Positions 945 through 19,837 of a stretch of DNA of 64,000 bases are shown in pieces. The translations under genes were made by a program, and so were the position numbers. The stretch's first letter is position 1, and each line of letters begins with the position of its first letter. The notes under the pieces are model-generated. The model was not told the DNA's origin. It saw only the letters and a program-made list of their open reading frames with translations, and did no database searches. The DNA comes from Bacteroidales bacterium (GTDB taxonomy: Bacteria; Bacteroidota; Bacteroidia; Bacteroidales; VadinHA17), in assembly GCA_038245405.1 (NCBI GenBank), contig JBBRSO010000002.1:2366-66365 (forward strand), in the 5' to 3' direction.

Positions 945-3114
945 AATTTAAAACAACTTTATTACTCTTAGCTTTATTTGTGGCAGCATTTACTGCACAG
1001 GCTCAAACAGATACTACTACTTACCAACTCACTCTGCGGCAGGAAACCGTGAACAAAGCCGGCAAAGACGTCAAGGGCATGACCATCAACGGGCAGATAC
1101 CCGGCCCAACACTGCGTTTTACCGAGGGGGATTATGCTGTTATATATGTCAAAAATGAGATGGATGTTGAGACTTCAATCCACTGGCATGGACTTTTATT
1201 GCCAAACTTTTATGATGGGGTACCCTATCTGACAACCCCACCCATTAAGCCCGGGGGAATCCAGAAATATGAATTTCCCTTAAAGCAATCCGGTACTTAT
1301 TGGTATCACTCACATACGATGCTTCAGGAACAAAGTGGCGTCTATGGTTCCATCGTGATTGAGCCCATAGAAAAGAAACTTGATTTTGACAAGGAACTGG
1401 TTTTGGTCTTGTCCGACTGGATCAATGAAAAACCGATGAATGCCCTGAGAACCCTGAAGCGGGGAAGTGAATGGTACCAAATAAAAAAAGGAACTGCTAA
1501 TCCTTTGAACCGCGTCATTTCCAGAGGAGCTTTGGGGGCACAGCTTAAATTTTGGAAACAACGTATGAATGGTGCAGACATTGCCGATATCTATTATCCG
1601 GCATTTCTGATAAACGGCAAGCAAAAACAGGAATATCCAGATTTAAAACCGGGAGAAAAAGTCAGGCTTCGCATTATCGACGGTGCGGCTTCAACCTCTT
1701 TCTAGATGACCTTCGGCGGGGTTGATCCTACCTTGGTTTCAGCCGACGGTAACAATGTTATACCAGTCGAGCGAAACAAAACCTTCATAGCCATTGCTGA
1801 AACCTATGATTTTATTGTAACGATTCCCGAAAACGGGGAAATTGAATTCCGGGCCACGGCTGCTGATGGTTCCGGGACAACGTCTGCCTATCTGGGACAA
1901 GGGAAAATCCTAGCTGCTCCGGATGTTCCCAAACCAGATAAGATTGGGATGATGAAACAGATGGCCAAAATGGATATGCGCATGGGTGCCCCGGCTTTAA
2001 AATTCAGACCGAAAAAGGATGATCCCAAAAAAATGAAAGATAAATGGGGACTGCAGATGGAAGGAAAAATGAATATGGCTATGGGGGACATGAAAGAGGG
2101 AAGCCAATCGGACGATACGAATTACAACTATTTGAGGTCTCCGGTAAAAACAACCTATCCGAAGGATGCACCAGTGCAAGAAATTTTGCTCAACCTAACA
2201 GGAAACATGAAACGTTATATCTGGAGCCTGAACGGCATTCCCCTTTCGGAAACGGGCAAAATAAAAATTAAGCAGGGAGAGGTCACCAGGATTACTTTGA
2301 ACAACCTGACAATGATGGATCATCCGATGCACTTGCATGGCCACTTCTTCAGGGTAATCAACAAAAATGGGGATTACTCTCCGCTTAAACACACGGTTAA
2401 TGTACCTGCCATGAATCAAGTTACTATTGAATTTTATGGACAAGAATACGGCGACTGGTTCTTCCATTGTCATATTCTCTATCATTTAGTGGGTGGGATG
2501 GCCAGGGTTATTAGCTACGATACTCCACGCGATCCCAGGTTGACAGGGTATCCTTTGAAGAAGCTCGTTCATGAAACCAATCGTTATTATACCTGGGGTT
2601 TGGCTGATCTGGCATCGCATAAAACAGCTTTGAACCTGGTTTCATCCAACATTAGAAACCAGTTTAACCTAAATGCCGAATATGGCTGGAACCAAAAAAT
2701 GGAGGCTGAATTTACTTATGAACGCTATTTGTACGATTATATCCGTGTATTTGCCGGTGTGAACGTGGAAAATACCAATCCAAACAGTCTTAACGATATT
2801 ATGACCACTGCCGTGGCCGGAATACGGTGGTTTACCCCATACATGTTTAACATGGACCTACGAATTGATAATGAGTTAAGGCCGAGGATCGGAATTGGCC
2901 GGGACTTGATGGTGTTTCCCCGGTTGTTAGCATTTGGATATTATGAATACAAATTTGACTTCGGCTGGGTCAACGATCTTTCGCCAAATAAAAATTTCGA
3001 AAAGGAAATTATTTGGAACGCCGGACTTGAATACATTCTCTCAAAGAATTTTTCTTTGATGCCAGCTTCGATAACCGCTTTGGTGTAGGTGGAGGTTTAA
3101 CTATAAGGTTCTAA
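941..3114 (+). pseudogene. multicopper oxidase (CopA/CueO-like) with a C-terminal beta-barrel-like extension, interrupted by an in-frame TAG and a terminal frameshift
   Basis: ORFs 941-1705 and 1706-3088 are in the same frame and are separated only by TAG 1703-1705. Together they carry the four MCO copper-ligand motifs (SIHWHGLL, YWYHSH, HPMHLHGH, HCHILYHLVGGM). Around the T-run at 3047-3060 the reading frame shifts. The alternative frame reads DASFDNRFGVGGGLTIRF* and ends at TAA 3112-3114. Confidence 0.8.
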
Positions 3115-3207
3115 TCCCATGTTTGGGAAAAGCATCTTCCGATATTTAGTTGAAATGGTTGCATTTGCATTGATATTACGAAATACACCCTCGGCAAGCT
3201 CTGCTCA

Positions 3208-3452
3208 GACAAATTCGATGTTTTGTGCTCGAAAATGTATGAATTTTGTAATTTATTTCAACAATTTTGTAACACTCTTCAAAGTAAAACTTTCCACCTT
3301 TGCAAACAGATAAATTAAAATTTTCTCAGACATAGAAAATGAAATGATTTATATCTTACATAAGGGAATAAATATTCAATATCAAAATGGGCAACAGCAT
3401 ATCTGAAGAATGGGCAACAGCATATCTGAAGAAAAATCTAATTCAAAAAGAC
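3208..3452 (+). promoter_or_regulatory. conserved upstream/leader region of the Met-rich protein gene (copy 1)
   Basis: About 245 bp align by eye at roughly 85% identity with 18986-19229, upstream of the paralog. Conserved elements are AATTTTGTAA at 3242-3251 and 3263-3272 (21-bp phasing), the palindrome TTTGCAAA at 3299-3306, and a perfect 23-bp tandem repeat TGGGCAACAGCATATCTGAAGAA at 3388-3410 and 3411-3433. Confidence 0.45.
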
Positions 3453-3995
3453 ATGAAAAATAAAAAAATGACTTCTACCATAATGGCTTCCTTGCTTATG
3501 CTCATGGGGTGCTTTATACCTGTCAACTCTTTTGCTCAAACAACAAACAAAGCTGTAGAGATGAAAGATGGTAAAATGATGGTTATTACAGATGGTAAAA
3601 CAATGCCTATGACCACTGAAATGACAATGAATAACGGAACAAAGTTTATGAAAAATGGCGAATTCATCACTAAGGACGGGAAAAAAATGAAGATGAAAGA
3701 AGGTGATAAGATGGATATGAGCGGGAATTTGACGCATGGTGATATGATGAACCAAGGTGATATGATGAACAATGATTACTATATGATGAAAAATGGTAAA
3801 ATGATGATGGTTATGAAGGACGGGAACGAAATGCCCATGACCAAAGATATGACTATGAAAAACGGAACCAAATTTATGATGAGTGGTGAATATATCATGA
3901 AAGACGGTAAAAAAATGAAAATGAAAGAGGGTGACAAGATCAATATGAACGGGAATATAAGTCATGGCGAAAAGATGATGGAAGGTAAGAAATAA
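3453..3995 (+). CDS. secreted methionine-rich tandem-repeat protein, putative periplasmic Cu(I)-binding protein
   Basis: The start was moved from 3387 to the ATG at 3453 because the paralog has a stop in the equivalent upstream frame. Signal peptide MKNKKMTSTIMASLLMLMGCFIPVNSFAQ. 34 of 151 mature residues are Met. There are two internal repeats of about 65 aa. Confidence 0.8.
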   Translation: MKNKKMTSTIMASLLMLMGCFIPVNSFAQTTNKAVEMKDGKMMVITDGKTMPMTTEMTMNNGTKFMKNGEFITKDGKKMKMKEGDKMDMSGNLTHGDMMNQGDMMNNDYYMMKNGKMMMVMKDGNEMPMTKDMTMKNGTKFMMSGEYIMKDGKKMKMKEGDKINMNGNISHGEKMMEGKK

Positions 3996-4282
3996 GAAAC
4001 CTGGGCGAAAACCTAAATTCACCTATAAAGGAATGAAGGAAGCGATGGGAAAATGAAATGATGAATAAGGAAAACCAGTCAGAACAGAAATAATACAATA
4101 ATCAAAATTAAACCAGGAATTATTTATTGATAAAGAAATAATGATTTAAATAAATTATTCGGGGTTGGGATTATAACGATTTATGACTTTTTGTAATTGA
4201 AAATTAATTTAATAGTTAAAAATCAGATTTGTGCATACTATGAAGCGTATTATATATTCACTTAATAAATAAGGAGGTTATT

Positions 4283-4426
4283 ATGGACATGGTACACGAT
4301 CCGGCAGCTTATGGATACGGGTTTCCCTGGCATTGGATTTTTGGAATAATTGTAGTTATTCTTGTTGGTTTTATAATTTTTAAGTTCATACAGCGAAAAA
4401 AGAAACAAAAATTCGATTCACACTGA
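4283..4426 (+). CDS. small (47 aa) single-pass membrane protein
   Basis: It is below the ORF-track cutoff. ATG 4283 is preceded by a canonical AAGGAGG (4271-4277) with a 5-nt spacer. Translation: MDMVHDPAAYGYGFPWHWIFGIIVVILVGFIIFKFIQRKKKQKFDSH*, i.e. an aromatic/Trp motif, one TM helix and a basic tail. Confidence 0.5.
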   Translation: MDMVHDPAAYGYGFPWHWIFGIIVVILVGFIIFKFIQRKKKQKFDSH

Positions 4427-4617
4427 GTTTTTCAAATAAGTCCTGTTCAACTACAGACTTTGATTAGTCGGTGTGTAGTTGCAAAAGAGAATCTTTTATT
4501 ATCGATTTGTTTTCGTAACAAAGTGAATCTTTATTGGAATAAGTAAAACTATGTTATCAGAACATTTCATTTACATTTTGAAATTCCTCAAATCATGTAG
4601 AAATTAAAATCTTAATT

Positions 4618-18785: not shown

Positions 18786-18990
18786 TCATTTTAAGACACC
18801 GGCAGCCCCGGAAAAACACGCTTGCCGTAAACCGATAAATTCCCGATCATCGCAATAATAGGTTCTTGATTTGGACGGTTTGTCGTCCGCTTATTGTTGT
18901 TGAACGAGACTCATAGACAAAACGCTCCATCTCAACAATTTGTTCAATTATTATTCTTATTAAAGCGCCTAATTTCATGATGCAGGACAA
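18786..18990 (-). pseudogene. degraded duplicate of the 3' end of the glucoamylase/GH144-like gene
   Basis: Two DNA blocks match the 3' end of the gene at 20893-21823. 18809-18840 (CCGGAAAAACACGCTTGCCGTAAACCGATAAA) matches 20906-20937. 18846-18873 (ATCATCGCAATAATAGGTTCTTGATTTG) matches 20993-21020. About 48 bp between the blocks is missing here. No intact frame remains. The upstream extent is uncertain. Confidence 0.4.
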
Positions 18991-19229
18991 ATTCGAGGCA
19001 TTGTGCTTGAAAATGTATGAATTTTGCAATTTATTCCAAAAATTTTGTAACACTATTCAGGATAAAGCTTTCAACCTTTGCAAACAAATAAATTTAAATT
19101 TTCTTGTACATAGAAAATGCAATGATTTATATCTGACATAAAGAACAAATATCCAATATAAAAATGGGCAACAGCATATCTGAAGAATGGTCAACAGCAT
19201 AACTGAAGAAAAATCTAATTCAAGTAAAA
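18986..19229 (+). promoter_or_regulatory. conserved upstream/leader region of the Met-rich protein gene (copy 2)
   Basis: Paralog of 3208-3452. AATTTTGCAA at 19020-19029 and AATTTTGTAA at 19041-19050 are 21 bp apart. It also has the TTTGCAAA palindrome and the 23-bp tandem repeat, with 2 mismatches in the second unit. Confidence 0.45.
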
Positions 19230-19670
19230 ATGAAAAATAGAAAATTTAATACTCTGGCATTATCGCTTATGCTTATGGGATGCTTTATATCAGGGAGCTC
19301 TTTTGCTCAAACCACCACCAAAGCTGTAGAGATGAATCAAGGAAATATGATGAATAATGGTGATACATTGAATCATAACAAGATGATGAATCATGGTAAT
19401 ATGATGAATAATAATGATACGTTGAGTCATGGTAAGATGATGAATAATGATTACTACATGATGAAAGCCGGTAAAATGATGATGGTCATGAAGGACGGGA
19501 AAGAAATGCCCATGAATAAAGACATAACTATGAATAATGGGACCAAATGTATGACGAATGGCGAATACGTCACAAAAGACGGTAAAAAAATGAAAATGAA
19601 AGAGGGCGACAGGATTGATATGAACGGGAATATGAGTCATGGCGAAATGATGAATAGAGGTAAGAAATAA
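19230..19670 (+). CDS. secreted methionine-rich protein, paralog of 3453-3995
   Basis: 146 aa. Signal peptide MKNRKFNTLALSLMLMGCFISGSSFAQ. 25 of 119 mature residues are Met. It has one copy of the ~65-aa unit, preceded by (N/H)G(N/K)MMN repeats. Confidence 0.8.
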   Translation: MKNRKFNTLALSLMLMGCFISGSSFAQTTTKAVEMNQGNMMNNGDTLNHNKMMNHGNMMNNNDTLSHGKMMNNDYYMMKAGKMMMVMKDGKEMPMNKDITMNNGTKCMTNGEYVTKDGKKMKMKEGDRIDMNGNMSHGEMMNRGKK

Positions 19671-19837
19671 TAAATCAGGGCGGAAATCCATGTCGTGAGC
19701 GATGGGAAAATGAAACCCACATGATTGATTCAGTCATAAACACGGAGGTAAATAATAATTGTGGATGATAAAGTACCTTCGGCAGGAATGCCGGAACATA
19801 GTCAAATTATTGAATTGAAAAATAAAAACAAAACATC

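Follow-up and report, generated by a model that had tools for sequence, protein, structure and literature searches.

A 245-bp non-coding block that stands ahead of both copies of a methionine-rich DUF6799 lipoprotein gene was analyzed in a 64,000-nt stretch of DNA from a Bacteroidales bacterium (VadinHA17 lineage; assembly GCA_038245405.1, contig JBBRSO010000002.1, positions 2,366 to 66,365 of the forward strand), the whole of which is called the window below. The block was resolved into a two-part control region, a promoter followed by leader hairpin units, and is read here, with a probability of about 60%, as the whole expression signal of a cassette duplicated within a copper island, built from two independent modules that work in two tiers. 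In the first tier, a one-component copper sensor (an HMA-like MxCxxC domain fused to an AraC DNA-binding domain) would bind two direct repeats centred near -60 and -39 of an activator-dependent promoter, and the metal-bound sensor would activate transcription in XylS/AraC fashion from the proximal site, which overlaps the -35 region. In the second tier, two tandem 23-nt units within a predicted mRNA leader of ~146 nt would act as RNA: a sequence-specific trans-acting factor would recognize them and set how strongly the next cistron is translated.

The two blocks (3208-3452 and 18986-19229) aligned along their whole length with one gap and 214 of 245 positions identical (87.3%), close to the 85% that the original prediction had estimated by eye. 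Similarity fell abruptly at the left edge of the cassette (41% identity over the 100 nt upstream) and to 50% past the stop codons on the right; in between it was near-flat (promoter 85-88%, leader spacer 86%, C-terminal coding part 85%), and the two leader units, 96% identical between copies, were the only part that stood out. Overall coding identity was low (66%), although the last domain reached 85%, because the DUF6799 genes contain internal repeats (3512-4011, 19331-19686): copy 1 has a duplicated 272-nt domain, and 18-nt periodic Met/Asn-rich repeats are present. The window alone is compatible with duplication of the whole cassette, and identity between copies is no proof of selection by itself; since that identity is roughly uniform across the cassette, evidence for function had to come from other genomes. 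The original prediction had named, as counting against it, a very recent duplication with equal identity in coding and non-coding parts (combined with no effect of repeat deletions) and absence of the motifs from related genomes. Identity was near-equal across the promoter, the leader spacer and the C-terminal coding part, and a search of relatives found both modules in metal loci of other genomes. It is extremely improbable that the between-copy similarity is a residue of duplication only and that the motifs are functionless in the window; the flat identity profile would suit such a residue, but both modules are kept in distant lineages amid unrelated surrounding sequence, and the units exceed the leader spacer in identity.

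The promoter module consisted of AATTnTGTAA-N11-AATTnTGTAAC, followed after 20-21 nt by a Bacteroidota -7 box of the form nAnnTTTG. The motif AATTTTGYAA, which had been reported twice in each copy at a distance of 21 bp, was located at 3242-3251 and 3263-3272 and again at 19020-19029 and 19041-19050, the two 10-mers of a pair being identical at 10/10 and 9/10 positions. Seven matches occurred in the window against 1.46 expected, and no shuffle reached seven. The same layout (repeat-N11-repeat-N20-21-nAnnTTTG) recurred at loci L001/L049, L074 and L096, and when the window copies were aligned with L001, L049 and L074 the conserved blocks stood in fixed register. Across 15 promoters the distal repeat followed AAT(T/C)(A/T)T(A/G)(T/C)AA and the proximal repeat AATTnTGTAAC; the 21-bp distance between them, and the 20-21 nt from the end of the proximal repeat to the -7 box, were kept in 15/15. 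In the closest DUF6799 relatives, L001, L002 and L049 (Bacteroidales genome assembled from metagenome), the proximal repeat, an ACCTTTG box and the unit are retained, the distal repeat is AATCATGCAA, and a single 22-nt unit is present. Farther upstream, TTTGT(G/A/T)C was retained in L001, L049 and L074, and this block could be a third half-site. Sequence comparison supports the view that the phased repeats are a genuine cis element, which is conserved and has the geometry of AraC/XylS-type sites.

The primary-sigma promoter consensus of Bacteroidota is -33 TTTG / -7 TAnnTTTG, and in F. johnsoniae this -7 box, TAnnTTTG, has its G at -5 (PMC6847099). With this geometry, transcription is predicted to start near 3307 and 19085, which places the repeats at about the distances given in the table. 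The window boxes (CACCTTTG and AACCTTTG) hold A-11 and TTTG of that consensus and not T-12. The TTTGCAAA palindrome, listed in the original prediction as a separate feature, proved to be the 3' half of these -7 boxes; in relatives the box stays fixed 20-21 nt past the proximal repeat, and the palindromic part does not persist. A search upstream found no -33 TTTG at the usual spacing, the sole upstream TTTG lying in the proximal repeat and ending 25 nt before the -7 box, which fits dependence on an activator. The usual distance from -33 to -7 is about 19-21 nt. Scanning for sigma-70-type promoters and terminators, a method unsuited to this phylum, gave no more matches than shuffled sequence. 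The repeats had also been described as near matches to the -7 box. This holds in the lineage of the window, where both fit xAnnTTTG (GAATTTTG, CAATTTTG), and fails in related promoters, where TTTG is not retained within the repeats (TTCTGTAAC, TTCCGTAAC, TAATATAAC, TTGTATAAC) while GTAAC and the 21-bp phasing are. It is therefore very unlikely that the repeats are themselves -7 boxes of tandem promoters rather than activator sites, since a separate nAnnTTTG (TAACTTTG, TAGATTTG, TAATTTTG and similar) always follows 20-21 nt downstream.

A candidate for the activator came from clustering of gene neighbourhoods, which grouped 186-aa proteins that start with MxIKNMVCxRC and end in an AraC-type DNA-binding domain (Pfam HTH_18 and HTH_AraC matches; the HMA/CopZ match was weak). 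The promoter layout was found directly past the stop codon of 10/12 such HMA-like+AraC genes (L054, L069, L074, L075, L088, L092, L111, L165, L166 and L169). Three of these loci formed an independent test, having been fetched via the regulator protein alone: L165 (Ginsengibacter hankyongi, which is in culture), L166 (a widespread metagenomic variant) and L169 (a Sphingobacteriales chromosome) all carry the motif (3/3), ahead of copA or HMA genes. The genes that follow regulator-linked promoters, past a short leader, encode HMA, CopA, DUF326 or SHOCT proteins, and a search with the regulator protein returned at least 7,935 relatives. The regulator stop codon (TAA or TGA) overlaps or abuts the distal repeat in the ten loci (e.g. 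TAAATTATACAA), so that the 3' end of the regulator gene and the presumed operator are fused. Because the promoter is physically linked to an AraC regulator with a metal-binding-type domain, the HMA-like+AraC protein is the obvious candidate regulator of the repeats, which it would bind in response to copper. Among the activator types first proposed, the AraC type is the one that this linkage favours; an OmpR/PhoB-type site, which needs a 10-11-bp period, was rejected, as the repeats here are spaced by 21 bp without any conserved repeat at half that period.

Class II promoters of the AraC/XylS family, such as araBAD I1-I2 and Pm with XylS, offer the closest comparison. The resemblance covers two direct-repeat half-sites at a 21-bp period, a proximal site that abuts or overlaps the -35-equivalent region, the lack of a good upstream hexamer, and an adjoining AraC-family regulator gene in related loci. 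Unlike those systems, the core promoter is of the Bacteroidota -7 type and the regulator, of just 186 aa, has an HMA-like MxCxxC sensor instead of a sugar or benzoate pocket; its binding and metal response are predictions. The presumed job, to have copA, chaperone and other resistance genes transcribed in response to copper, is that of CueR/MerR, CsoR and CopY, from which the family differs in being an unrelated protein that would read direct repeats rather than a dyad in an over-long spacer or a palindrome. In a marine survey, Bacteroidota had only two-component and extracytoplasmic function (ECF)-type homologues of known copper systems (PMC10141476). Our literature search found no paper on an HMA-AraC copper regulator in Bacteroidota, and the promoter would add to the AraC/XylS site class a member tied to an apparently undescribed metal-sensor family.

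The second module contains the 23-mer TGGGCAACAGCATATCTGAAGAA, which occurs exactly at 3388-3410, 3411-3433 and 19165-19187 and with two mismatches at 19188-19210, as had been claimed; none would be expected by chance. A covariance model (R1) found these four units only, and no further copies in the window (e.g. before the multicopper oxidase, cytochrome c or copA genes). The unit consensus was GGGYAACAGCGnnACUGAAR, with ~17/23 positions nearly invariant. One genome per species was scanned with GGCAACAGC-N3-4-CTGAAGAAAA, which gave 72 stretches, among them ~40 Bacteroidota/Ignavibacteria loci (Chitinophagaceae, Saprospiraceae, Algoriphagus, Pedobacter, Flavobacterium, Cytophagales, Bacteroidales and Ignavibacteria); the remainder look like chance matches in coding sequence of other phyla. 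A further 85 loci came from metagenomes, scanned for at least two units in tandem. Arrays are carried by the cultured strains Algoriphagus aquimarinus ACAM 450 (L035), A. winogradskyi DSM 15360 (L057), Pedobacter changchengzhani E01020 (L058) and Flavisolibacter nicotianae X7X (L037), among others. In the pool of 138 distinct arrays, 105 had two units, 30 one unit and three had three units, a distribution that the metagenome pattern tilts toward two-unit arrays. Judged from these sequences, the tandem arrangement is the usual state of a phylum-wide element and not a local duplication. Rfam 15 gave no match at gathering score in the window, and at E<=10 nothing above noise for 3090-3520 or for a canonical array of L032; no paper naming DUF6799 or the unit motif sequence was found in the literature. 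The leader unit is apparently a widespread, undescribed Bacteroidota element.

Arrays were placed with respect to genes rather than to promoters. A same-strand open reading frame (ORF) lies downstream of 133/138 arrays, with a median of 22 nt from G20 of the last unit to the ATG (interquartile range 20-24), and in 105/124 arrays a same-strand ORF ends within 150 nt upstream (median 20 nt). At L006 the order is HMBD-stop, unit, HMA-stop, two units, DUF6799, with one array per cistron. Genes 3' of arrays are small (50-190 aa) and encode DUF326/Csp-like Cys-rich four-helix proteins (at least 49), DUF6799 proteins (at least 30), HMBD lipoproteins, DUF302, HMA and SHOCT-type membrane peptides. The surrounding genes form copper and heavy-metal clusters, where CusA-like pumps and P-type ATPases are encoded. 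The only context without an obvious copper link is one genome (JABDFG01; L010, L026, L078) in which ~10 class I lanthipeptide-type precursor genes (NF038153) each carry a unit. These are single 22-nt units, one per gene and 24-31 nt before the ATG, and several lie ~14 nt past a tAGCTTTG (or tAGCTTTa) -7 box. The two modules are independent of each other: promoters without units were found at L069 and L165-L169, and most arrays have no adjoining promoter.

Structure evidence bears on whether the units act as RNA or as DNA. The unit can form a hairpin in which a conserved AA/AA internal loop lies between the C4-G20 pair and a CAG/CUG stem, capped by a loop of 4-5 nt. At positions 4/20, 174 distinct units hold C-G (134), U-A (17), U-G (11), C-A (6) and A-U (1), and in a pair-counting test 0/500 shuffles equalled the observed covariation. 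The 4-20 association was present within units (Fisher p=7e-10 for unit 1, p=0.002 for unit 2) and not between neighbouring units (p=1.0 and 0.65), although the units share descent and these p-values overstate independence; covariation inside units and none between neighbours argues against a lineage-wide shift in protein preference. Unprompted, RNAalifold returned C4-G20 and the CAG/CUG stem, and added G1-C23 and C(-1)-G(+24) in non-terminal units. A faces A at positions 5/6 and 18/19, so the unit is not a DNA palindrome. Together, covariation, strict orientation, a fixed distance to the AUG but not to a promoter, and one array per cistron favour action in the transcript. A pairing of the 3' half of one unit with the 5' half of the next was also considered and showed no covariation. 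The sequence GGCAAC further prompted comparison with sigma-54 and ECF-sigma promoters, which was abandoned as the GG-N10-GC and AAC-N16-17-CGT spacings misfit the consensus; single units lie 14-26 nt downstream of ordinary -7 boxes.

The original prediction had left open whether the 23-mer is an operator or an RNA element. It is a real element and the RNA side of that pair is favoured; that the units are double-stranded DNA operators, for a repressor, a roadblock protein or a second HMA-AraC site past the promoter or between genes, is unlikely. Tandem direct repeats at a two-helical-turn period are typical of protein sites, CnnCAG-N5-CTGnnG within the unit makes an imperfect inverted repeat, the ~17/23 near-invariant positions suit sequence-specific recognition, and the hairpin is weak as RNA. 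However, covariation of half-sites within a unit, while array neighbours differ, is unexpected for a protein reading independent half-sites, the facing A/A positions break the palindrome, orientation always follows the downstream gene at a set distance from its ATG and at no set distance from a promoter, operons hold a single array per cistron, and the unit bears no similarity to the AATTnTGTAAC repeat.

If the units work as RNA, several modes of action come into question. We lean toward enhancement of the downstream cistron, because the targets have in common, even in the lanthipeptide case, that they are small proteins required in larger amounts than the co-transcribed enzymes; repression, processing and direct metal sensing are the alternatives. 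Units that serve as determinants of RNA processing or stability (an endonuclease site or a protective 5' structure), uncoupling the abundance of small-protein mRNA from the operon, would account for the same excess and for the position of most arrays between genes, and the ~22-nt remnant past the last unit would, in our reading, resemble a normal short Bacteroidota leader. Exonucleases would be poorly held back by a hairpin with just 3 bp of stem, though, and the tight AUG spacing is explained more directly by an effect on initiation, so this explanation too is given a low likelihood. Direct sensing of metal by the RNA, in the manner of a Cu(I)/Ag(I) riboswitch, is highly improbable. The unit is very small and poorly structured, its copy number ranges from 1 to 3, lanthipeptide precursors carry it too, and the folds contain no expression platform (terminator or sequestering helix), against which stand an almost exclusive link to copper/silver genes, the conserved unpaired A.A positions and GGG run, and the failure to find a protein partner near arrays. 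A further reading, in which the 22-23-nt unit is a phylum-specific landing or gating site for translation control 22 nt before cistron AUGs, read either by an RNA-binding factor or by Cu(I)/Ag(I) through the A.A/GGG core, is quite unlikely; were Cu(I)/Ag(I) read directly by the unit, it would be the first copper-sensing RNA.

Several results weigh against the two-tier reading as a whole. On the RNA side, besides the shared descent of the units, there is just one covarying pair, the other three stem pairs being invariant and partly fixed by the search patterns, and among rare stem variants mismatches and wobbles are about equally frequent. Thermodynamically, the hairpin is marginal (consensus energy -1.9 kcal/mol) and minimum-free-energy folds of the leaders were no better than those of shuffles (z-scores -1.3 to +1.1). 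No candidate gene for an RNA-binding protein recurs near arrays, and the lanthipeptide precursors of one genome make a strictly copper-specific role doubtful. On the promoter side, the -7 boxes of the window lack the usual T at the first position, and no HMA-like+AraC regulator was found among the window ORFs scanned, with ~10 kb of the source contig lying outside the window. The original prediction had likewise listed no metal regulator in the window; the controlling sensor would then be encoded outside it. A 72-88-aa lysine-rich ORF (MSNKTALKDNLK...SSALVAASLGRSA...) was seen in 12 array-bearing loci (including L156 1052-1270 and L073 5763-6029), just upstream of the array in L073; it is without a Pfam match and is a candidate gene only.

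In concept, the units resemble iron-responsive element (IRE), CsrA-target or coat-protein operator hairpins. IREs belong to eukaryotes, with cases known for aconitase in bacteria. As with IREs, the units are short sequence-conserved hairpins with unpaired conserved bases, in one or several copies in the 5' leaders of metal-homeostasis mRNAs, and as iron regulatory proteins read the IRE to control translation, so a protein is proposed to read the units; unlike IREs, which are unrelated in sequence and fold, units also lie between genes of operons at ~22 nt from the AUG. Targets of CsrA/RsmA likewise present several small leader hairpins near the initiation region, at a spacing fit for a dimeric binder. 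A CsrA-type site was nevertheless rejected, as the defining loop GGA is present in part of the units only (CGGAA is the commonest loop, 24/174; the window loop is CATAT, others are CGAAA, CGATA and CAAA) and the conserved part here is the stem and internal loop. ANTAR targets share the two adjacent leader mini-hairpins; this reading was discarded on account of 4-5-nt loops without the A1/G4 hexaloop signature, no overlapping terminator and no Rfam match at E<=10. The units thus fail the defining signatures of both the CsrA and ANTAR classes. The ops element of RfaH is similar as a short strand-specific leader element, with a possible tiny hairpin, linked to genes lacking Shine-Dalgarno sequences, but it is a single 12-nt leader site read in the non-template DNA strand, whereas the units recur before individual cistrons at a fixed start-codon distance.

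That the block is non-coding had been argued from ORFs called across it on different strands (3119-3313 on + and 18847-19053 on -). Both ORFs are present, and the conclusion stands on further grounds. An ATG inside the unit is found only in the window and L001 lineages, most relatives having cGGGC or tGGGC instead; copy 2 holds an in-frame TAA; and a period of 22-23 nt is unable to hold a reading frame. These points rule out an N-terminal extension or upstream ORF starting at the unit ATG. The more distant relative L005 has two tandem units, neither with an ATG, so the ATG in the units of the window is incidental and the element non-coding. A small ORF over the promoter (MYEFCNLFQ..., in both copies) was rejected, its frame and start being lost in L001/L074 and its substitutions showing no synonymous bias. 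The true starts of the DUF6799 genes are likely 3453, where the copy 1 signal peptide (MKNKK...LMGC) begins, and 19230. Public start calls are probably wrong for these genes (window 3387-3452 and 19230-19268; L006 4001-4072): the copy 1 call of 202 aa starts at 3387, with an ATG within hairpin unit 1, and reads through the units, another DUF6799 call of 133 aa starts at an internal Met, and the L006 call passes through two units (4001-4072). No motif or fold was found in the ~78-nt leader segment that separates the promoter from the units in the window. Coordinates of all features are collected in the table.

Table. Features of the two block copies and their genes, in window coordinates.
Feature	Position	Strand	Remarks
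Far-upstream conserved block, copy 1 (contains GTTTTGTGC)	3208..3241	+	88% identical to 18986-19019
Distal direct repeat AATTTTGTAA, copy 1	3242..3251	+	About -65 to -56 from the predicted transcription start
Proximal direct repeat AATTTTGTAAC, copy 1	3263..3273	+	About -44 to -34; in place of a -33 element
-7 box CACCTTTG (nAnnTTTG), copy 1	3295..3302	+	21 nt past the proximal repeat
Lineage-specific leader segment, ~78 nt	3310..3387 (copy 2: 19088-19164)	+	86% identity between copies; absent in L001, L002, L049
Leader hairpin unit 1, copy 1 (GGGCAACAGCATATCTGAAGAAT)	3389..3411	+	Covariance model R1 33.4 bits, E=3e-9
Leader hairpin unit 2, copy 1 (GGGCAACAGCATATCTGAAGAAA)	3412..3434	+	R1 34.8 bits, E=1e-9; G20 21 nt before ATG
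DUF6799 Met-rich lipoprotein gene, copy 1	3453..3995	+	PF20606, E=2e-38; likely true start 3453
Far-upstream conserved block, copy 2	18986..19019	+	Alignment with copy 1
Distal direct repeat AATTTTGCAA, copy 2	19020..19029	+	15-promoter comparison
Proximal direct repeat AATTTTGTAAC, copy 2	19041..19051	+	15-promoter comparison
-7 box AACCTTTG, copy 2	19073..19080	+	Predicted transcription start near 19085
Leader hairpin unit 1, copy 2	19166..19188	+	R1 33.4 bits
Leader hairpin unit 2, copy 2 (GGTCAACAGCATAACTGAAGAAA)	19189..19211	+	R1 31.1 bits; changes at position 3 and in the loop
DUF6799 Met-rich lipoprotein gene, copy 2	19230..19670	+	PF20606, E=2e-21; DUF302 and DUF305 genes 3'

Both copies are set in a copper island. 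Copy 1 is preceded by a multicopper oxidase and followed by genes for cytochrome c, DUF3347 and haem-binding proteins and a divergent CopA-type ATPase; after copy 2, DUF302 and DUF305 genes come next. The multicopper oxidase (ORFs 941-1705 and 1706-3088) is interrupted by an in-frame TAG at 1703-1705 (...GAASTSF*MTFGG...), with both parts in the same frame. The gene could be a pseudogene, the stop could be a sequencing error, or it could be read through; no Pfam match covered the final ~190 aa of the second part. Two tiny ORFs were read off the sequence, one for a 47-aa membrane-type peptide (MDMVHDPAAYGYGFPWHWIFG...) at 4284-4427 on the + strand and one for a 68-aa membrane-type peptide at about 9537-9331 on the - strand, upstream of copA. 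Both may be related to the SHOCT-type peptides found after arrays elsewhere.

Copper sensing in Bacteroidota is poorly described, and the large 186-aa HMA-like+AraC family together with a precise operator/promoter consensus makes a testable pairing. Gene starts are corrected where public calls had run through the units, and both modules could serve as copper-inducible expression parts for Bacteroidota. As members of this phylum do not use Shine-Dalgarno sequences (PMC6847099), the leader unit may show how Bacteroidota set translation of particular genes within operons.

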